From positions 20,600 through 84,599 of IMG/VR virus record IMGVR_UViG_3300049825_000338: 64,000 nucleotides of DNA. One strand, given 5' to 3'. The DNA comes from a virus (taxonomy: Duplodnaviria > Heunggongvirae > Uroviricota > Caudoviricetes). This document shows positions 454 to 20,609 of the stretch, one piece after another. The position numbers and the translations under genes are program-made. The number at the start of each line of letters is the position of its first letter. Positions within the stretch are counted from its first letter, which is position 1. The notes under the pieces were generated by a model. The model ran no database searches and had not been told where the DNA came from. It saw only the letters and a list, made by a program, of their open reading frames with translations.

Positions 454-666
454 TTATTCTAGACGACTAAGAGCTTCGTCAGCCGTGATATTCCCCAACG
501 GACTTCCGACTGTATCAAGCTCTTGCTGCCACTCTTCGTCAGACATTGTTACACGTGCCATAAGAGCGTCAAACTCGTCATAGTCTTCGTTGTCGTCAGT
601 CAGTGGACTTGGTACCATCTCACTCACAATCCTACCGCCTTCATTGTCTCTAGAGCGCCAAACCAC
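454..666 (-). CDS. hypothetical acidic protein; last gene of the leftward operon
   Basis: ORF overlaps upstream lipoprotein gene by 43 nt; followed by 7-bp perfect stem hairpin (aaccctt/aagggtt ~425-445). Confidence 0.35.
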   Translation of the reverse strand: MVWRSRDNEGGRIVSEMVPSPLTDDNEDYDEFDALMARVTMSDEEWQQELDTVGSPLGNITADEALSRLE

Positions 667-2999
667 TTGCCTGTTCTATCAGCATCGCTTGAAAGTCCTC
701 CACCGTAGTGTACCCAGATTAACGCTTGAAACTCGTGAATCTTCATACGAGAAAACTGGTCCGGATGTTGTGTCTTAAGCGTGTTCAAAGCGTTACGCGT
801 AATCTTTGTTGTGTCACGGAACATTCCATCGCCAGGAGCAATGTGGTCCTTAACTGATCCAGCGCCTCGTTGAAAGATGTCTTGAGCGGTGGCGGCTTTC
901 TTTGTTCCTTTGGAATCTAGAGTCAGTTCTTTCATCGAGCCTCGTGACCCTTTATTGTGAAGTGGCGAATTTCCAGCCATAACTCGATAATGCCAGGTCT
1001 GCCCGCTGAAAAAAGTACGCCCTGCCCTACGAAAATAAGCCGTACCGTTATCAAGATTAGGACACCACACGAGTCCGTCATAAAGTTCTTCCGTGACGGT
1101 AAGAGCATCAACATGAATTGGCCGTGGCTTCAGAATTGACACATGGATATCTCCGCTAGGTGACACGTACCGTTTGGTGTTGAATCCAGCAATTCCGGCT
1201 ATGGCGTCAATATTGTCGGCCGCTAAGGAATCTTTACCTGTCCAGACGCGATTATTGTTTTTTCTTGTTCGACCGTCACCTAGAATCGCTGTGTCCAGAA
1301 ATCCATCGGCCTCATCAGCCGTCATAGAAGCAATAATTTCTTCCTTGAGTATACGTCCTTGAACCGTCTTATGTGCGTACGAACCTTCAGTAAACGAATC
1401 TCGAATTGCCAGAGCAGCAGGCCCCCCAACGGTCATTGTAGCCACACAACGATCATCACGATACCCGTACGGCCCTTCTTTAATCACAAATTCATCCGTC
1501 ACAGCACCAATATCAGCAAGCATTGTGACGTACTTGTCGGCGTTCACAGTGACAGACTGTGAACGTGTGATCTTGTTGGGGGAATTCTTAGGGATTGATC
1601 CATCAGAATGAATCCAGCCTAGCAATCGCGCCATTTTGACTCCGCCAACAATGCCAACATTACGGCCAATCGGGGCGGCTGTGTGGATTACGCCACTTGG
1701 TGGCAAAGAGTGTGATGGAGTGCGGTCACGTCGAGATATTGGTCCTGGCATGCGACTAGATGAAGTTATCCAGTTGTGATTTTTGGTGCAAACAACGTCA
1801 AACCTTGGTGACTTTTCGGAATAGCGCTTGCCTGAAATACGAACTACGTTGCCTGGCTCAGCTTGTCCAACATACACGTAGTTTATTGCCTGCCATTCTC
1901 CAACTTTCGTTTTCATGTTATAAGTCAAAGCCATATCACCTGGAATAACCTCAAAATATTTCAGCCAACCGCGCTGTGTAAGTAGTTCTGTTTCGGTGTC
2001 AAAGCAGTCGTTGGTGCTTGAGTAGTCCTTGTTCGGATTGGAGATATTAGAGAAAAATGACGAGTACTTCGGTCCCGATATTGATTGTCGTGATGTCACT
2101 TCGCCACGAAGAACGGCTACAGCCTGCTTTACTTGAAGCGTTCCCTTAGATGTGAACCACGGAAACGGAGGAGCAACTTTGTACTGCTCTGATGCTGACT
2201 TAGTGCCTGCTACAGTTCGGTCATGCCACTCGTTAAACGATCCGTGAGCGCGTAGGGCGTTAATGCTGTAGGCCGCTTCTACGAGAGTGGCTGAGTCAAG
2301 GTCTTTTGTAGAGACCGACCCCTCTTTAAGCTTCCCTCCGCACAGACCGACTTTACCAACTGCCTTGACTGACTTGCCGCAGCGCCACTGCATAAACTCT
2401 AGGTGCTTGGCTTCAATCTTTAGGTCAACCGGGTTCTTCACAATCTCGGCTAATGCTCGCGCTGTTTCGATGTTGCCGTTCTTGACACCAGACCACAAAC
2501 GTCCAGCAGAAAGTGTAGTCGCAGCTGCAACAACCTGATCCATTGGAATGCCGGTATCCGCCGAAATTGCCTTACAATCTTGGTTGGCTATTGAGTACCA
2601 CTTAGAATTGAGGGTGCCTTGAGTGGCCACTGCCAGGTCCACAGCACCAGACTTAGGATTGATTCCCATGGCAAGTTGTCCAGCCACAACAAGATTCGCC
2701 TCATATGCCGCCTTGGAAGGGCCGATGTCGTTCCAGAGGGTCGATAGCTTTGTTTCGGCTCCCTCACTAAATTTCGTAAAGTCACCCGATTCGGTAAGAC
2801 CTTCTACGCTCATTGTGCCGTCTTCGTAGAGTTTTTTCTGAGACGTATCGGACAGTCCCGTGAACAGGAGCTTTAAATCGTCACTACTTGTGAGCGCCAC
2901 ACCTGATCCGTCGCTGCTTCCTCCCGTACCTCCCGACGTAGGAGGTCTACAGGCCGCTGAATGGCAAGCAAAGACTAGTGACTGACGTGCGGACAACAT
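624..2999 (-). CDS. lipoprotein with intein-like Hint domain and LAGLIDADG endonuclease motifs
   Basis: N-term lipobox LVFAC; internal Cys-start splicing block CFDTE..., TxxH block (TKNH), two LAGLIDADG-like motifs (LLGWIHSDGS, FLDTAILGDG), C-terminal block ending FFSGQ|T. Confidence 0.65.
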   Translation of the reverse strand: MLSARQSLVFACHSAACRPPTSGGTGGSSDGSGVALTSSDDLKLLFTGLSDTSQKKLYEDGTMSVEGLTESGDFTKFSEGAETKLSTLWNDIGPSKAAYEANLVVAGQLAMGINPKSGAVDLAVATQGTLNSKWYSIANQDCKAISADTGIPMDQVVAAATTLSAGRLWSGVKNGNIETARALAEIVKNPVDLKIEAKHLEFMQWRCGKSVKAVGKVGLCGGKLKEGSVSTKDLDSATLVEAAYSINALRAHGSFNEWHDRTVAGTKSASEQYKVAPPFPWFTSKGTLQVKQAVAVLRGEVTSRQSISGPKYSSFFSNISNPNKDYSSTNDCFDTETELLTQRGWLKYFEVIPGDMALTYNMKTKVGEWQAINYVYVGQAEPGNVVRISGKRYSEKSPRFDVVCTKNHNWITSSSRMPGPISRRDRTPSHSLPPSGVIHTAAPIGRNVGIVGGVKMARLLGWIHSDGSIPKNSPNKITRSQSVTVNADKYVTMLADIGAVTDEFVIKEGPYGYRDDRCVATMTVGGPAALAIRDSFTEGSYAHKTVQGRILKEEIIASMTADEADGFLDTAILGDGRTRKNNNRVWTGKDSLAADNIDAIAGIAGFNTKRYVSPSGDIHVSILKPRPIHVDALTVTEELYDGLVWCPNLDNGTAYFRRAGRTFFSGQTWHYRVMAGNSPLHNKGSRGSMKELTLDSKGTKKAATAQDIFQRGAGSVKDHIAPGDGMFRDTTKITRNALNTLKTQHPDQFSRMKIHEFQALIWVHYGGGLSSDADRTGKWFGALETMKAVGL

Positions 3000-6456: not shown

Positions 6457-7964
6457 TCACCATCATACCGGTGTGAACGGCCTACGGACTGAATTACTTG
6501 TGAACGAGTCTCTTCCCTCCACAGGACTTGGTCGGCAGTCTTAGGTGCGTTCTGCGGGACACGGCTAATCACGACCGAGCGAAGAAGCTCTCCCGGCAGA
6601 TCAACACCCGTTCCAGCACCAGCCAGGCAACCAACAATCATGTGGTTCCGATGATTCGCCTTGAACGTCTGAATGGCCTTGATACGATCAACACCGCTGT
6701 AGTAGCGCAGAACTGCTCGCGAAGCCTCTAGGGGCAACTGAGCGACCACTGCGTCAAGATCGTCGCGGCTCACGAACAACCCCATCAGCGCACCTCCCTT
6801 AGCAAACTCGTCAGCAAGAACTGCTGCCACGTTTGCGGCCCATGCAGCGTGTGCCTGACGCTGTGCTTGTGTGCCCTTTGACCACGCCCATGCTGGGCCA
6901 GCGATTTCAGAAACACGACTTGCCGAGACATCGAGACCTTCGAGCTTGACAAGTGAAGCGTCAAGACCAAGCTCTTGCACGTTGCGCTCGCTCAGCGTTC
7001 CCGACATCGCTACGACTTTGCGGCCAATCATCACGTCCGTCAGGTCAGCTGGAATGGTCAGAACTGTGCGGCGACCATCAGTATCAAACTGTGGGCGGCC
7101 CTTGCCCTTCATCGCTCCCATGAAGCGACGTGCGTGCTTGGCCATCTTGTGCTCATCATCGCTAGCCCATTTGACTACCAGCGCCATCGTCTCGTCCGGA
7201 CCTTCAGCAGCGATCTCGGCCTCCGCCTCAGTCACGTTGCGGTAACGAGGACGAACTACCAGCTGCACACCAAGAATGCTCTTCAGCGGCTCAACATCAG
7301 CATGACCTTCGTCCAGCACAATGAGGGCGTCATCAACCATGTTCTTGGCCCACTCAACGTAGCCGCCCAGACCAAGACCAAGCATCGTGGCGTTGGTGAT
7401 CACGACATCCGAGGCGATAGCCGTGTCACGAGCCTGCCACAACGGGCAGGCGCTCGCACGGCGGATCGAACAGTCTTCGCACGGCGATGAGGTAGTGTCT
7501 TCATCTTCCTCGGTCTCGTCGTCTTCCGGATCGCTCACGAGCGCCGTCACAGAATGATTGATGTAGATGCGAGGCTCTAGGCCGCTGCCAATGAACGTGC
7601 CGTTCTCGATCACGAACGCCCGCTGAGCGTCGGTCAACCCAGCGAGGCTGGGCGAGGCCTTCGGGCACCAGTAGTGGCTCTTGCCAACTAGCGTTGCAAT
7701 GGTTGCATCCGTGGCGTTCGACCAGGCGTCGATCTCGCTGGCGTATTGGCTGATCAGACCGTTGGAGTGCATGGCGATTATGCCCTTGCCATGAGCAATA
7801 GCTGCGGCCACGGCGATAAGGCTTTTGCCTACGCCCGTTGGGGCCATCAGAGCAATGTGACCATCCGAACCGTCAATCTCCGCCGCCGCCGCCGCCTGGC
7901 CAGGACGCACTTCGCGCCCCTGGTCTTCGCAGATAGCGGTGAGGACTTCAAGAGTTGTGGACAT
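6369..7964 (-). CDS. DinG/XPD(Rad3)-like ATP-dependent DNA helicase with Fe-S cluster domain
   Basis: Walker A APTGVGKS, DEGH box, four-Cys cluster (YWC...CEDC...C), C-terminal helicase motifs; consensus leaderless promoter immediately upstream. Confidence 0.8.
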   Translation of the reverse strand: MSTTLEVLTAICEDQGREVRPGQAAAAAEIDGSDGHIALMAPTGVGKSLIAVAAAIAHGKGIIAMHSNGLISQYASEIDAWSNATDATIATLVGKSHYWCPKASPSLAGLTDAQRAFVIENGTFIGSGLEPRIYINHSVTALVSDPEDDETEEDEDTTSSPCEDCSIRRASACPLWQARDTAIASDVVITNATMLGLGLGGYVEWAKNMVDDALIVLDEGHADVEPLKSILGVQLVVRPRYRNVTEAEAEIAAEGPDETMALVVKWASDDEHKMAKHARRFMGAMKGKGRPQFDTDGRRTVLTIPADLTDVMIGRKVVAMSGTLSERNVQELGLDASLVKLEGLDVSASRVSEIAGPAWAWSKGTQAQRQAHAAWAANVAAVLADEFAKGGALMGLFVSRDDLDAVVAQLPLEASRAVLRYYSGVDRIKAIQTFKANHRNHMIVGCLAGAGTGVDLPGELLRSVVISRVPQNAPKTADQVLWREETRSQVIQSVGRSHRYDGDWGHVQVVGGFGHRKDVVEGLKELGWVIG

Positions 7965-9643: not shown

Positions 9644-10906
9644 TCAGGAAGACAACTCCATGTCCGGAACGTCGGCCTCAGCAGCCAGGCCCTCACCCAC
9701 GCGGAACGTCAAACCCTTGTGCTTCAAGGCATAGGTACGACCCTCTGGCGTCTCAACACGGGCAACCACGCCCTCGATAGGATGCGACTCGTCTAGAGGG
9801 TCCGGACCATCAAAATACACCTCAGCAATCTTAACTGTATAATGAGGATCAGCAGCTTCGTGAATGTGCCGAGCAATCTCTCTGACGTGAGGAACGCCGA
9901 GCTGCGCAGCACGATGCTTGACCTGCGGCCATGAAAGCTCTACAGAAACAGGAGCACCGAAAGCGTCTTCGGTTGTCTGTGTGACTCGGTAGATGTACAC
10001 ACCAATCGAGCCATCAATCTGGCCGTACTTGTAGGTAACACCATCGCCCCACTTCTTAAAGTCCTTCGTATCCTTGAAGTTGTGTCGACCCATGATCGGG
10101 CTGTCCTGAGCCGTGTAACCGACAATCTCGTAGTAGACGATCTCGCCCTTGTGAAGCTTGCCATCGAACAACGAAGCTGCTCGCTTGCGGAATGATTCGT
10201 CCAGGTAGTAGCCAGGGCCGTCAAACTGGTCAAGCACCGTATTACGCGTACCGGTCAAGTACATCCATTCAAACGACTCCGCTGACTTCGTCGGTCGTCG
10301 AAAAAGCTTCTCGATGAGTGTGCGCTTCTCTGTGCTCTCAACCTTGTCGAGCACGTGGCCTGTTCGGCCGCTGGTGCCGTGCATCTTGTGCGTGAAGTAC
10401 ACCATCGAGCCGTCAGGAATCTGATCGAAGTAGTAACCTAGCTGTTCGGTGTCAAAATGCTTCGCAAAGAACGGATTTGACCGTCGAAGCTTGTGATCAT
10501 TCGGACCACCAGCTGCCTTAGTCTTCGGTACATGCTTGAGGCACACTTCGTGACCATTCAATTCCGTGAATATGTCACCGGACTTCAGTGCTGACAGATC
10601 GTAGCCTGTGTAAGCGAGCGATGACAATGGTGCAATGTAGCCGTCAGATGACTCGCCACGAAACTTCTGTGGGCGAACGCGCAACGAGTCGGGGAAGTAC
10701 CCGCCGTCCTTGGACCGTAGCCTGTTCTCGGTTGCATACTCATCGGAGACTGCTAACTCCGAAGAGAAAAAGACGACAAGCTCACCGTCTGTCGTGTCCA
10801 GCCCGACAACAACCTGAAAGCCGCCCACCTGAGCGAGCTTCAGTCGGTCTGCATTTGGGTGCGGACGAATCGACGCCTGTGTAATGAATGCTCCGTGCGT
10901 TGTCAT
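9644..10906 (-). CDS. RNA ligase with N-terminal tRNA-binding (OB-fold) domain
   Basis: HPNADRLKLAQV (tRNA-binding domain signature), KMHGTSGR resembling ligase motif I (KxDG variant); adjacent phosphoesterase genes. Confidence 0.55.
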   Translation of the reverse strand: MTTHGAFITQASIRPHPNADRLKLAQVGGFQVVVGLDTTDGELVVFFSSELAVSDEYATENRLRSKDGGYFPDSLRVRPQKFRGESSDGYIAPLSSLAYTGYDLSALKSGDIFTELNGHEVCLKHVPKTKAAGGPNDHKLRRSNPFFAKHFDTEQLGYYFDQIPDGSMVYFTHKMHGTSGRTGHVLDKVESTEKRTLIEKLFRRPTKSAESFEWMYLTGTRNTVLDQFDGPGYYLDESFRKRAASLFDGKLHKGEIVYYEIVGYTAQDSPIMGRHNFKDTKDFKKWGDGVTYKYGQIDGSIGVYIYRVTQTTEDAFGAPVSVELSWPQVKHRAAQLGVPHVREIARHIHEAADPHYTVKIAEVYFDGPDPLDESHPIEGVVARVETPEGRTYALKHKGLTFRVGEGLAAEADVPDMELSS

Positions 10907-13455: not shown

Positions 13456-13757
13456 TTGTTTGCCAACTCTCTGATTGAAGGGTTTGCCCCAGATATTCCT
13501 AGGTGCTTATGAACGGCTTTTCTAAGCCTCCTGGTATAAAGTGTATGTCTGTCAAAGGGATGAGGATTATCCAGATAGGTCATGTATCCACAACGAACTT
13601 TTAAGTCACCAAGATCAAATTGCCAGAACCTGTTATCGTTGTCGCCATAAAGTCGTTTAAAGTTTGTTGCGCGACCGGCCTTAACTCCGCTAACTACAAC
13701 GGAATACCACCAAAGTCCTCGTGCTTTCGATTTCTCAATTCGGATACCTTCAGCCAC
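13452..13757 (-). CDS. hypothetical protein (ATGA-coupled to GIY-YIG gene)
   Basis: ORF; start/stop overlap. Confidence 0.4.
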   Translation of the reverse strand: MAEGIRIEKSKARGLWWYSVVVSGVKAGRATNFKRLYGDNDNRFWQFDLGDLKVRCGYMTYLDNPHPFDRHTLYTRRLRKAVHKHLGISGANPSIRELANK

Positions 13758-15213
13758 GGAGACGTTCTCTGATCTTGTCTAGCGTGTTGTCTTCGGCATA
13801 GTCCATCGAAATCAAACTGTCTACGAACGCTGGTCGAAGAAGATCGCGTGTAGACGACTCCTGCTCTTCTGGAGATAGGCCATCATTCAGAACGAGTTTG
13901 CCGTTCTCACGAGTCACCGTCAAGAATCCAGTTGCAGACTTCTTCAGGCCGTCATCAGTCACTGGGTCTTTGGCAAGAAAGTGAATCTTTCCGTTGATCT
14001 CGGCTGCTGTAGCCTTCATGGCCCACCCGAACGTATCGCGAGTTACGTACTGGTATGTGTAGCTGCCAATACCGAGCACAACTTCTGGAGCGTAGCCAGC
14101 GGACTGAAGTCGAGCAAGAATTTCTTGCGCTCGATCAAACGTAATGGCGTCTCCATAAATCACGCCAACCTTAGGATTGAGCACTCTGTAACCTTGAGTG
14201 TTCGTTGTGCTTCCAAATACTTTGTCAAGAAGACGGACAACGCCTTTCGATTCATCAGAATCAGCAGGTGCGTCAGGATCACCGCAAATGATCTTTACCG
14301 GGTCGCCACTGTCAGGACGGATCACGAGCTTGCCGTCACGAGCCTCAATTTCTTCCTTAAGGTCAGGAAGAATGTTGTTGATCACGTTCCACAAGTCCCA
14401 AGTGTCAGAAACAACCGAGACAATCCCAGAAGGGTACAGGTGCAAAAGTCGATTGAATGTCTCTCGCTCGTCCATTTTTGATCCAGCGCACATCACTGAG
14501 TGCTCGGTAGCAGCCACTGAGCCACCGATGAGTCCTTGACCGTCGTAGTAGTGCTCAAGCAGCTTGATTGCTGGGATGGTGTCCGTGCCCGTAAAGCTGA
14601 GAAGGTGGCCAGCGCCTGAGATAGCGGCGCTTTCTGGACTGGACATGCCGCGGAAACTGAAGTCATGACCTTGCCACTGCACGAACTCTGGTGCTACACC
14701 GGTAGCGGCTGCGCTACGGTCAAACAACTTTCGGTATCTGTCCGCAGTCGTAGCTGACGTCGATGGCAGCCACAGGACGCTGGACAGCAGCGTCTCGATA
14801 TAGTTGGTCAGCCAGAAGAACTCTGGGTCAGTATTTTCGACCGTAAGAACGGGAACCCTCATCGGCACTCTCGTGCCCTCGTCCAAAGCCATGATGGCAA
14901 TCGGAAGACGTTGCAACTTATGCAGTGCTTCGATGTGGTCGACGCCGATATTGTTGGGTCCGAGGTAGCTATCCAAGAACTCGCGATACTCCGCAACCGC
15001 TACGTCACAGGGGGTATCGAACCATTCATTGAACTCGTCAACAAGATACTTCTGCATGAAATAGCGAAGACCAAAGAACACAATCTCGTCAACACCCTCA
15101 ATGCGTGATCCTCGCGGCGTCAGGTTAGAGTAGACAAACGTCGTTCCTTCTGGATACTGACGACGGTGGTCTACCTTGTAGCCGTCAGTTAGCAAGATTG
15201 CTGGTGTGTTCAC
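13750..15213 (-). CDS. nadV: nicotinamide phosphoribosyltransferase (NAMPT)
   Basis: LLTDGYKVDH, VENTDPEFFWLTNYIETLL, GHDFSFRG, VVSDTWDLWN match NAMPT family blocks. Confidence 0.85.
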   Translation of the reverse strand: MNTPAILLTDGYKVDHRRQYPEGTTFVYSNLTPRGSRIEGVDEIVFFGLRYFMQKYLVDEFNEWFDTPCDVAVAEYREFLDSYLGPNNIGVDHIEALHKLQRLPIAIMALDEGTRVPMRVPVLTVENTDPEFFWLTNYIETLLSSVLWLPSTSATTADRYRKLFDRSAAATGVAPEFVQWQGHDFSFRGMSSPESAAISGAGHLLSFTGTDTIPAIKLLEHYYDGQGLIGGSVAATEHSVMCAGSKMDERETFNRLLHLYPSGIVSVVSDTWDLWNVINNILPDLKEEIEARDGKLVIRPDSGDPVKIICGDPDAPADSDESKGVVRLLDKVFGSTTNTQGYRVLNPKVGVIYGDAITFDRAQEILARLQSAGYAPEVVLGIGSYTYQYVTRDTFGWAMKATAAEINGKIHFLAKDPVTDDGLKKSATGFLTVTRENGKLVLNDGLSPEEQESSTRDLLRPAFVDSLISMDYAEDNTLDKIRERLRG

Positions 15214-18489: not shown

Positions 18490-20472
18490 TTACTGGCTGA
18501 CTTGGTTTGTGACAACTTGATTGAGAGAATTTTTCCAGGCGATGTACGCAGCCACCTCGTCATCGTGACCGTTGCTGAACAGAAGCGGATAAGTGTTATG
18601 GATGGTGGACAGTACTTCCTTGGACATCGTGTCCACGTCCCAGTAATTCACCATAAATCCTGCGAATCGGTCATCATCTTCACCAAGATCGCTGAAGATT
18701 GGGTGATCCATCACTGTTTCCAGTAGCGCCGGATACCGGTCAAGCTGTGCAACAACCTGCGACCTTGCCCTATGACGAAGAACCACGTCCTTGTATTTCT
18801 CTGACGTAGCGCTGAGCGCCTCACTCCAGTGACGACTTTCTGGTAGACCCAGCTTCCTCACCTCGGCTGGTGTGTAGTGCTTGACCTCTAGAGTTGGGTG
18901 GTCGATACTAAGAACGTTCCACTCCGAACCTGACGGGCTGTCCTGGTGACGTTTGCTGCGACTCTGGTTGGCCCAAAAAAGGTCAGGGTTACTCAAATCA
19001 AACGTCGGTTTAGGACGCTTAGGTGTCGTGGATGCCTGACGAACCTCCTTTGGCTTCTTGGGTAGGTCGTCAAAGTTGATGATATTCTCATCCGGAATAC
19101 GCGCCTCGGTCTTAATCTTGTCCATATCACTATGCGAGCCAACCAGCAAAAAATCATCTCTATGGCGAGAAGATGGATAGTTGAACGTGAGAGTGGTGCG
19201 TACTCCCTTACTTCCTGTTGGAATGACAATGAACTTGTGCCGCAGACGTCGTTCGATATAGACTCTGTGATCACAAGGTACGGAGTAGGTCGGGAACACC
19301 GGACCCTTGGTAAATCGACTAGCGTAGGTAGGATCATGGTCAAGCGCCACATCAATACTATCGATCAAAGGGGCACCACGGTAATTGAACGTGTTACGGG
19401 CCAGACCAAAGTTCTGTACTGTGTCGTACCAGTAGAACGATGCGTCTACGACTGAGCTACAGGCGTCCAATTTGTCTTGAATGTGGCTGATCACCGAAGC
19501 ACGAGCGTCAGTGATGGCATCCCGAACCGCTACGATGCTCTGCTCATCGTATGAGAAGTCTTCACGAGAGGCCGTCACGTCGATCGACCCAATCGGAACA
19601 TCAATGACCACAGCAATTCTGTGCACTCGCAAAGAGTTTTGAAGAACCGAACTCTTTGAAATTGGGTAGATCACGCAACCTTGACGAATGTACGTGCCCT
19701 CATCCAACTCAGACGTTGCCAGCAATATCCGAACGTTGTCGACGTGCAGAATCTCTTCCGGCTCTGCAAAGTTCATGCCTTCGACAGCTGGCACAGGAAA
19801 GAACCCGTTAAGAAAGCGTCGTGCTGCTCGTGCAAACTCGTGATAGTCGCCGTGCTTGATTGAAAGCTTCACCTCGACACCTTGTGGCTCCGAGCAGTCC
19901 TCTTCACCCGCAAGCGTCAGCGCCGGAACGCCGCTGTTTTCGATGAACGCCAAGTAACTGCGTACTCGCGTTCCGTCGTAGCAACGAATCGCAAACTGAT
20001 CGGTGTAGGAGAAAGGCGACTTAGAGCCGAGACCGAGCATACCTACCTGGTCGTTGGTGCTTTCCTTTGACGAGCCAAACAACGTTGTGTACAGCGTGGT
20101 CACGGTCTCGTGATCCATGCCGGTGCCGAAGTCGCGAACACCGAACACAGGATTTAGTGCTGTAGGAACTGTAACCTCGAACGGCACGTCAGCCTTGCCT
20201 GCGGCTACGTGCGAGTCGAATGCGTTAGAGCACAATTCTCGCACGATTGCGCCAGGCTTGTCAGAGTAAAGCTTGTCCACGAGTGTGCGGAAGGCCTTAC
20301 CGTTCGCTTCAATCGTGAATGACTTCACGGTTCCGGTCATGTTCGACTCAAGAACGGTGGTGTCTGCGTTGCGGGGGATCATGATGTGACCTCTTCTGTC
20401 AGGTTGAACTGAGCGTAGTAGGGTGATGTGTCGTGAACTTTTCCTTCGGGACCGAAGACGCCATAGCACCAT
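18490..20472 (-). CDS. GHKL-family ATPase (HSP90/MORC-like); probable start at 20382 (ATGA overlap with upstream gene)
   Basis: N-box RELCSNAFDS, G1 box VRDFGTGM, G2 box GMLGLGSKS. Confidence 0.6.
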   Translation of the reverse strand: MVLWRLRSRRKSSRHITLLRSVQPDRRGHIMIPRNADTTVLESNMTGTVKSFTIEANGKAFRTLVDKLYSDKPGAIVRELCSNAFDSHVAAGKADVPFEVTVPTALNPVFGVRDFGTGMDHETVTTLYTTLFGSSKESTNDQVGMLGLGSKSPFSYTDQFAIRCYDGTRVRSYLAFIENSGVPALTLAGEEDCSEPQGVEVKLSIKHGDYHEFARAARRFLNGFFPVPAVEGMNFAEPEEILHVDNVRILLATSELDEGTYIRQGCVIYPISKSSVLQNSLRVHRIAVVIDVPIGSIDVTASREDFSYDEQSIVAVRDAITDARASVISHIQDKLDACSSVVDASFYWYDTVQNFGLARNTFNYRGAPLIDSIDVALDHDPTYASRFTKGPVFPTYSVPCDHRVYIERRLRHKFIVIPTGSKGVRTTLTFNYPSSRHRDDFLLVGSHSDMDKIKTEARIPDENIINFDDLPKKPKEVRQASTTPKRPKPTFDLSNPDLFWANQSRSKRHQDSPSGSEWNVLSIDHPTLEVKHYTPAEVRKLGLPESRHWSEALSATSEKYKDVVLRHRARSQVVAQLDRYPALLETVMDHPIFSDLGEDDDRFAGFMVNYWDVDTMSKEVLSTIHNTYPLLFSNGHDDEVAAYIAWKNSLNQVVTNQVSQ

Positions 20473-20609
20473 CCCGTCCGGCGAGCGAGCGCCTGCGCTT
20501 CGATGATTGCCTCATCCTTGGAGTCGATCGTGCGGGCATTGAATGTGCGATAAAAGCCGTCACCGCCGTTGTCATCGGTGTAGGTGACAATCTTGATTGT
20601 GTAACTCAT
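20379..20609 (-). CDS. hypothetical small protein, first gene of the GHKL/rsr/NAD-salvage operon
   Basis: consensus leaderless promoter 20616-20644. Confidence 0.5.
   Translation of the reverse strand: MSYTIKIVTYTDDNGGDGFYRTFNARTIDSKDEAIIEAQALARRTGWCYGVFGPEGKVHDTSPYYAQFNLTEEVTS

Follow-up and report, generated by a model that had tools for sequence, protein, structure and literature searches.

The window analysed here, 64,000 nucleotides (nt) of a tailed-phage genome (Caudoviricetes; positions 20,600 to 84,599 of IMG/VR record IMGVR_UViG_3300049825_000338), carries a gene for a DUF7178-family phage protein whose coding sequence is interrupted by a long in-frame insertion. We conclude that this insertion is very probably a mobile intein, lying between the invariant Asp331 and Thr668 of a cytoplasmic host protein, which is expected to remove itself by self-splicing and to spread by homing (residue numbers are those of the unspliced precursor). 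The observations that carry this conclusion are the exact position of the insertion, its membership of an intein family, its fold, its retention of the residues that are invariant in that family, and the presence of intein-less alleles in syntenic phage genomes.

We used amino acids (aa) 1-331 joined to aa 668-791, i.e. the extein as it would read after splicing, as the query in a search for homologues. Apart from the window's own protein (P0001, on a 106-kb JGI metagenome contig), the search recovered about 50 homologues, 338-581 aa long, with 26-62% identity to the query over 92-100% of its length. The intein was missing from all 49 of the 49 homologous proteins of other metagenomic phages, with no inserted column between positions 331 and 332 of the joined sequence. 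Conservation in the protein is highest at the flanks of the junction (...DYSSTND/TWHYR...), where T329, N330, D331, W669 and R672 are invariant in the homologue alignment. One of the intein-less homologues (P0005) is encoded on a 109-kb contig of a related phage (L002), which has a run of genes in the same order as the window, i.e. genes for a DUF6011 protein and a deoxynucleoside monophosphate (dNMP) kinase, the DUF7178 gene and a small acidic open reading frame (ORF). Around the empty site, 46 of 60 nt are identical between L002 and the joined flanks of the window, and the intein-less sequence of L002 reads CCTGACAAGGACTACTCGTCCACAAACGAC/ACGTGGCACTACCGCATCATGGCAGGTAAT across the site. The insertion is therefore in-frame and missing from homologues, the host sequence is contiguous where it is missing, and a syntenic empty allele is present in L002.

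The preliminary description of this gene, made from the letters of the window alone, had proposed looking for related phages with an insert-free copy of the gene; the 49 homologues without the insert are such copies, and they define the extein junction precisely. That junction alters two of the sizes first estimated, as the insert is 336 aa rather than ~415 aa and the C-terminal part is 124 aa rather than ~95 aa. The estimate of ~340 aa for the N-terminal domain was a fair one, the actual length being 331 aa.

Relatives of the insertion are widespread in other genes. Matches to proteins of cultured phages were confined to aa ~294-729 of the precursor, and the matching stretches lay inside genes for portal proteins, large terminases, DNA methylases and DNA polymerases, in phages that include those of Gordonia and Mycobacterium. 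Such a distribution, which is independent of the host protein, is typical of inteins and therefore supports the identification. When aa 332-667 alone were searched exhaustively with HMMER against 1.84 billion representative proteins, there were 2247 matches at E<=1e-3, of which 461 reached E<=1e-10. Almost all of the matches aligned with the intein from end to end (query 1-335) and at differing positions within larger proteins, and the extein types included TerL, GpA ATPase and amidase. With the intein alone as query, a word-indexed homologue search yielded a single protein. Among the relatives were two large terminases (P0057 and P0060) that each carry two separate full-length inteins of this family, at different sites.

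Conservation within the family was read from an alignment of 106 full-length relatives and the window intein (107 sequences), with positions in the intein blocks numbered as in PMC2807308 and PMC5222942 (e.g. B:12 for position 12 of block B). In block A, Cys1 was present in 107 of 107 sequences, G13 in 100% and W14 in 98%; in block B, the Thr, His and Trp were conserved in 97%, 100% and 90%, respectively. The acidic column of the first LAGLIDADG motif was Glu in 82% and Asp in 17% of sequences, followed by Gly in 99%, and the second motif had Asp in 100% and Gly in 98%. Both the Trp and the Cys of block F were found in 100% of sequences and the pair of Arg residues in 92-97%, and the C-terminal end of the family read Thr (92%), Gly (97%) and Asn (96%), the next residue being Ser, Thr or Cys. 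The window intein retains all of the family-invariant columns i.e. C1, G13, H77, Q150, D244, W314 and C315, and both of its LAGLIDADG acidic residues are kept as well. The features that had been picked out by the preliminary description were all found in place, namely Cys-Phe-Asp at aa 332-334, TKNH at 405-408, LLGWIHSDGS at 459-468, FLDTAILGDG at 567-576 and FFSGQ/T at 663-668; given the number of matches to aa 332-667 and the exact gap in the 49 homologues, they go far beyond chance.

A profile built from 22 family members was compared with the sequences in the PDB, and matched PI-PkoII (E-value 3.9e-9), the AceL NrdHF intein (3.8e-6), the Spl DnaX mini-intein (1e-4) and the VMA and PI-PfuI inteins (about 5e-4). 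The AlphaFold2 model of the intein, made with a 22-member alignment, had beta-rich ends and a central alpha/beta domain, with a predicted local distance difference test (pLDDT) score of 90.7 and a predicted template modelling (pTM) score of 0.90. In a Foldseek search of the PDB with this model, the top matches were intein homing endonucleases i.e. TliVMA (9e-14), PI-SceI (3e-12), PI-PfuI (3e-10) and PI-PkoII (6e-8), with template modelling (TM) scores of 0.55-0.63; next came the free LAGLIDADG enzymes I-DmoI and I-SceI and the mini-inteins Ssp and Npu DnaB and Mtu RecA (1e-3 to 1e-2). The fold of the central domain matched the endonuclease domains of I-DmoI, I-SceI and PI-SceI. Double-motif enzymes of this kind have two LAGLIDADG helices, each closing with an acidic residue and a Gly, in an alpha-beta-beta-alpha-beta-beta-alpha fold, and the window intein conforms to this with Asp466-Gly and Asp575-Gly. 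As judged from its sequence and the predicted structure, the insert is a Hint splicing domain split by a double-motif LAGLIDADG homing endonuclease domain. The central proposal of the preliminary description, that the gene is interrupted by an intein combining Hint splicing blocks with a LAGLIDADG endonuclease, is thus borne out by the intein-less homologues, the exact junction, the family, the profile matches in the PDB and the predicted fold.

From established intein chemistry and the residues identified in the window intein, we infer that the intein splices, that it cleaves DNA, and which of its cysteines initiates the reaction. Splicing would begin with an N-S acyl shift in which Cys332 attacks the Asp331-Cys332 bond, aided by Thr405 and His408 of block B, and the N-extein would then be handed to the Thr668 side chain. 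Cyclisation of Gln667 would release the 36.8-kDa intein, and an O-to-N shift would convert the link between the exteins to a normal peptide bond, giving a host protein of 455 aa and 48.5 kDa that reads ...YSSTND-TWHYR...; the expected junction peptide of the ligated product is ...DYSSTNDTWHYR. The endonuclease of the freed intein (acidic residues Asp466 and Asp575) would cleave alleles that lack the intein at the conserved TND/TWH coding site during co-infection, and repair of the cut allele would copy the intein into it i.e. homing. The extreme conservation of the TND/TWH site fits the usual logic of intein persistence.

Three features of the window intein are unusual but precedented: its C-terminal Gln, its penultimate Gly, and a class 3-like Trp/Cys/Ser triplet alongside Cys1. 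The N-terminal Cys and the T-x-x-H of block B are those of a standard intein (Cys332, Thr405 and His408), and the C-terminal residue and +1 nucleophile are present in the form of a rare Gln variant (Gln667/Thr668). A penultimate His (G:6) is common in inteins but is not obligatory. The window intein has Gly666 in place of this His, Gly being the norm for its family (97%), and penultimate-Gly phage inteins do splice, e.g. mycobacteriophage Bethlehem gp51 (PMC5050341). A Gln terminus was found in 4 of the 107 aligned family sequences, the window intein included, and in 6 of about 180 family copies in other proteins. Some Gln-ending inteins splice slowly (those of Pab and Mma PolII), and the Chilo iridescent virus (CIV) ribonucleotide reductase (RNR) intein splices better with Gln than with Asn (PMC4031507).

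The closest relative of the window intein, in P0056, is 42% identical to it and has the same SGQ/T end. P0056 is another DUF7178 protein, with a Zeta toxin domain (Pfam), and its intein appears to occupy the same site (...SFFNNINDP...VD/C...SGQ/TH...), as suggested by the Pfam DUF7178 match and by a local motif, SFFxNIxxP...D/T, seen by eye. An hhalign comparison of the extein profile with spliced P0056 aligned the N-terminal 157 columns only, with a probability of 97.6%. Because the Gln terminus is shared with P0056 across a long divergence, a functional role for it is favoured over decay.

A number of observations count against a functional, mobile intein. In scoring with a family hidden Markov model (HMM) built from 105 relatives, the window intein came lowest, at 216 bits against a median of 348, where the relatives were scored on their own training model and so have inflated scores; the other held-out sequence, P0056, scored 265 bits. 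The low score indicates that the window intein is a divergent member of the family. Several consensus positions in the endonuclease domain are replaced, and the endonuclease may therefore be weakening; the intein also ends in Gln and has Ser instead of Thr at G:5. Its composition does not mark it as foreign or recently acquired, as the GC content at third codon positions (GC3) is 0.41, compared with 0.51 in the N-extein and 0.43 in the C-extein. At the curated Pfam thresholds the intein region is not called, with LAGLIDADG_3 reaching E 0.029 and 15 bits against a cut-off of 22.5 and no match to Hint or Intein_splicing, which accounts for the source annotation of 'hypothetical protein'. Together with the non-consensus Gln667, Ser665 and Phe656, the low HMM score and the endonuclease substitutions could be taken to mean that the intein is decaying and no longer splices, the gene being a disrupted copy that is kept transiently, and there is a precedent for an intein pseudogene (Arsp-FB24 Arth_1007; PMC3196547). 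We regard this as improbable, since the 2376-nt ORF at 624-2999 is a single intact reading frame, all family-invariant columns are retained, the exteins and splice-site residues match the invariant host motif, the SGQ/T end held in common with the 42%-identical P0056 intein would not be expected of a random recent lesion, and Gln-ending copies recur elsewhere in the family, as described above. A separate question is which cysteine attacks first. By the class 3 route it would be Cys646 of block F, not Cys332, forming a branched thioester from which the N-extein would pass to Thr668. The class 3 Trp-Cys-Thr (WCT) triplet consists of Trp B:12, Cys F:4 and Thr G:5 (PMC2807308, PMC5222942, PMC5050341), and in the window intein all three positions are filled, by Trp410, Cys646 and Ser665 (family consensus W 90%, C 100% and T 92%). 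Thr occupies the +1 position, as it does in almost every class 3 intein, the best mini-intein match of the family profile in the PDB is the class 3 intein AceL NrdHF (3.8e-6), and three WCT inteins with an N-terminal Ser or Cys had been noted already in 2009. However, the hallmark of class 3 is the loss of the N-terminal nucleophile, whereas the family of the window intein keeps Cys1 in 186 of 188 copies, and this strict retention argues that Cys1 is needed. At E<=1, the PDB matches of the family profile did not include Msm and Mch DnaB1, further class 3 inteins of solved structure. Class 1 inteins with Cys at F:4 also exist and are polyphyletic (PMC3196547), and Cys ranks second in frequency among the residues at this position (PMC3196547 and PMC4031507). 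In view of the retained Cys1, the known class 1 inteins that have Cys at F:4, and the precedents for WCT inteins starting with Ser or Cys, the class 1 route is the most likely and the class 3 route is unlikely. It is similarly doubtful that the window intein and its family, with Cys1 accompanied by Trp B:12, Cys F:4 and Thr or Ser G:5, might be dual-nucleophile inteins, in which either cysteine could initiate splicing, or use Cys1 and Cys F:4 as a redox switch, and so represent a living intermediate between class 1 and class 3; a transition from class 1 to class 3 has been argued to be improbable on the basis of structural work (PMC7664689).

The remaining alternatives concern the host protein as much as the insert, and both go back to the preliminary description. 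The first supposes a bacterial-intein-like (BIL) or Hint autoprocessing domain that cleaves without splicing and frees the C-terminal fragment as an effector, as in polymorphic toxins. BIL domains did occur among the weaker Foldseek matches (E about 2e-4, TM 0.2), relatives of the host domain are found in multi-domain phage proteins with toxin-type modules, such as P0056 with its Zeta toxin domain, and there were weak BFVD matches to 'ART-PolyVal-like' proteins. Against this, the C-terminal 124 residues are a conserved continuation of the same domain in 49 of 49 intein-less homologues, and the N- and C-exteins pack into one confident predicted fold. The +1 nucleophile that BILs lack (PMC7664689) is present as Thr668, there is a complete homing endonuclease domain, which is a mark of mobile inteins, and true inteins lead the structural matches by 8-10 orders of magnitude in E-value. 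Release of a toxin-like fragment is therefore very improbable. The other reading made the host protein an exported lipoprotein with a lipobox leader, and the string L-V-F-A-C near the N-terminus, with one Arg ahead of it, does resemble one. A Sec/SPII signal has a positive n-region, a hydrophobic h-region of about 7 or more residues and a lipobox with an invariant Cys. In the precursor Cys12 is preceded by just 11 residues, the hydrophobic stretch is about 5 residues long, and the best 7-residue window, LVFACHS, includes the Cys itself; a signal peptide was accordingly rejected. The supposed leader is MLSARQSLVFAC, and its LVFAC opens a conserved 21-residue motif; homologues and unrelated phage proteins carry the stretch FACHSAACRPPTSGGTGGS, which contains the supposed lipobox, at internal positions. 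The precursor matched no lipoprotein family in NCBIfam or Pfam, and the neighbouring genes encode cytoplasmic nucleotide and DNA enzymes (dNMP kinase, HAD nucleotidase, prim-pol, helicase, RNA ligase, NAMPT and DNA polymerase). We consider lipoprotein export to be extremely improbable, and as there is no lipoprotein, the apparent puzzle of an intein that must splice before its host is exported disappears.

The motif that had been read as a lipobox is of interest in its own right. In homologues, Cys12, Cys17, Pro19, Pro20 and GGTGGS (G24-S28 included) are at least 90% conserved, and the motif reads E-[EF]-F-A-C, usually E-E-F-A-C, following 30-60 mostly non-hydrophobic residues. It also occurs in unrelated multi-domain proteins, e.g. 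at aa 6 and ~190 of P0051, at ~163 and ~434 of P0052 and at ~14 and ~305 of P0053, as well as in P0054. P0056 has it too, and the window holds a single copy. The consensus [VF]FACH[SD]A[AS]CRPPT[SA]GGTGGS recurs nearly letter for letter at the start of, or between, unrelated modules, and some proteins have 2-3 copies. The modules beside it are GNAT-like, HExxH-like, ParB-like, L5 gp82-like, HAD, and DUF7178 with Zeta toxin, and the motif always precedes a Gly/Ser-rich linker. It has the look of a delimiter between modules in 'polyvalent'-type phage proteins, and perhaps it is a processing site or a small C-H-x3-C metal knuckle. We found no description of this 21-residue motif.

The intein obscures the identity of the host protein at the Pfam threshold, as the spliced extein scored 28.1 bits against a DUF7178 gathering threshold of 27, whereas the unspliced precursor scored only 18.4 bits; the match spans aa 131-186, in the N-extein. 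DUF7178 was matched by 49 of the 50 family members and was the only Pfam family found. The AlphaFold2 model of the spliced extein consisted of one mostly helical domain (pLDDT 91.1, pTM 0.89), with values of 94-97 on both sides of the junction, and was uncertain only over the first ~32 residues, which include the Cys motif. Searches that bear on host function gave only a chance match with the single sequence in the PDB (E about 0.1), no match between the extein profile and the PDB, no match in NCBIfam, and one PHROGs family of unknown function. The BFVD fold matches were weak and were to uncharacterised phage proteins, some labelled as polyvalent-protein domains, and a literature search for DUF7178 returned no papers.

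Inteins tend to occupy functionally critical, highly conserved sites, and the invariant TND/TWHYR is therefore likely to be the functional core of DUF7178. By eye, ...TND/TWHYRV resembles the catalytic-Asp motif of E. coli Nth (...AVDTHIFRV), and an invariant Lys311 lies 20 residues upstream. An hhalign comparison of the extein profile with E. coli Nth gave a probability of 0.1%. A homologue search with Nth brought up sequences of 86-99% identity only, which are unfit for a diverse profile. As a hypothesis only, DUF7178 could belong to the HhH-GPD-like glycosylases, which have a helix-hairpin-helix, a Gly/Pro-rich loop and a catalytic Asp, and the intein would then follow immediately on that Asp.

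The positions of the gene, its parts and the adjoining ORF are collected in Table 1. The computed mass of the precursor is 85.4 kDa. In the Joint Genome Institute (JGI) gene call, the protein (P0001, 758 aa) begins at a GTG, i.e. at Val34, so that the conserved N-terminal Cys motif is cut off; the ATG at 2999, which is 5 nt past the stop codon of the dNMP kinase gene, agrees better with the homologues. A tblastn search with the 65-aa ORF next to the intein-less gene, on its downstream side, in L002 matched the small acidic ORF of the window with 36% identity (E 1.4e-5). This ORF is a syntenic context gene and is separate from the intein. Its counterpart in L002, at 7536-7733, also overlaps the stop codon of the DUF7178 gene and is followed next by the large terminase gene, and the DUF7178 gene thus sits at the border between the nucleotide-metabolism and packaging modules.

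Table 1. Coordinates in the window of the intein-containing gene, its parts and the adjoining ORF
Feature	Positions	Strand	Basis
Whole precursor gene, 791 codons plus stop codon at 624-626	624..2999	minus	ORF list
N-extein, aa 1-331, with ...NPNKDYSSTND at its end; opening part of the DUF7178 host protein	2007..2999	minus	full-length alignment with 49 intein-less homologues
Conserved motif LVFACHSAACRPPTSGGTGGS, aa 8-28, earlier read as a lipobox	2916..2978	minus	conserved in homologues
Intein, aa 332-667 (Cys332 to Gln667), 336 aa, 36.8 kDa	999..2006	minus	gap in 49 homologues, family, profile, fold
Block A, CFDTETELLTQRGW; Cys332 is the first intein residue and N-terminal nucleophile	1965..2006	minus	family conservation
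Block B, RFDVVCTKNHNWIT; Thr405 (B:7), His408 (B:10), Trp410 (B:12)	1764..1805	minus	family conservation
First LAGLIDADG motif, LLGWIHSDGS, aa 459-468; acidic Asp466	1596..1625	minus	family column, fold
Second LAGLIDADG motif, FLDTAILGDG, aa 567-576; acidic Asp575	1272..1301	minus	family column
Block F, DGLVWCPNLDNGTAYFRR; Trp645-Cys646, Cys646 at F:4	1026..1079	minus	family conservation
Block G and C-terminal junction, RTFFSGQ/T; Ser665 (G:5), Gly666 (G:6), Gln667 (G:7), Thr668 (+1)	996..1019	minus	
C-extein, aa 668-791, 124 aa, starting TWHYRVMAGN; rest of the host domain	627..998	minus	aligns with C-terminal parts of all homologues
Small, very acidic ORF (about 56-70 aa across the window and L002)	460..627	minus	start overlaps the stop codon of the DUF7178 gene

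Elsewhere in the window, all on the minus strand, are genes for a nicotinamide phosphoribosyltransferase (13750-15213), an RNA ligase (9644-10906) and an rIIA-like protein (18490-20472); the phosphoribosyltransferase is full-length (PHROG E 1.8e-183). No tRNA genes were found within the 64 kb window. A megablast search with the whole window gave no nucleotide match to cultured phages; metagenomes are the only source from which the phage is known.

These results add an unannotated intein, at a new site, in the DUF7178 family of uncultured large phages, and the TND/TWHYR motif, as the likely functional core, gives a handle on DUF7178. With a precursor that falls under the Pfam thresholds for both its host and its intein domains, the gene is a worked example of how inteins can hide genes from annotation. 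Having a Gly-Gln terminus as well as Cys at position 1 and at F:4, the window intein is a cheap natural test case for the splicing mechanism; it has no bearing on lipoprotein export.

Compared with known systems, the window intein is an ordinary, previously unannotated example of a known mobile element, at a new insertion site. Its nearest parallels are large class 1 inteins found in actinobacteriophages, which carry a LAGLIDADG endonuclease, have a residue other than His in the penultimate position and were catalogued by Kelley et al. 2016, mBio (PMC5050341). The insert in gp135 of Mycobacterium phage Pinkcreek belongs to the same family, aligns with the window intein from end to end (88 bits, E 3.5e-29), and shares the motifs C-A-D-x-x-T-E, TxNHRW, VWCP and ...YFTG(N). 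Actinobacteriophage inteins and the window intein are alike in Cys1, the penultimate Gly, the location in a phage host gene and the sporadic distribution. They differ in that the window intein is hosted by DUF7178 at TND/TWH, has Gln rather than Asn at its end and Ser rather than Thr at G:5, and is only 24-31% identical to them. PI-SceI (VMA1), TliVMA, PI-PfuI and PI-PkoII have the same two-part architecture, i.e. a Hint domain split by a LAGLIDADG domain, at 6-12% identity to the window intein and with lengths of 366-537 aa compared with 336 aa; these solved intein endonucleases have Asp at F:4 and end in His-Asn, whereas the window intein has Cys at F:4 and ends in Gly-Gln.

The C-terminal Gln is shared with the PolII inteins of Pyrococcus abyssi (Pab) and Methanoculleus marisnigri (Mma) and with the RNR intein of CIV, which splice by Gln cyclisation in experiments (PMC4031507). 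The host proteins and lineages of these inteins are unrelated to those of the window intein, the two from PolII are mini-inteins, and in the family of the window intein Gln is a minority state. Class 3 inteins (Bethlehem DnaB, Msm, Mle and Mch DnaB1, and AceL NrdHF), which are found predominantly in phage-related genes, share with the window intein the Trp at B:12, the Cys at F:4, a hydroxyl residue at G:5 and a Thr or Ser at +1. They lack an N-terminal nucleophile, however, whereas the family of the window intein keeps Cys1 almost without exception.

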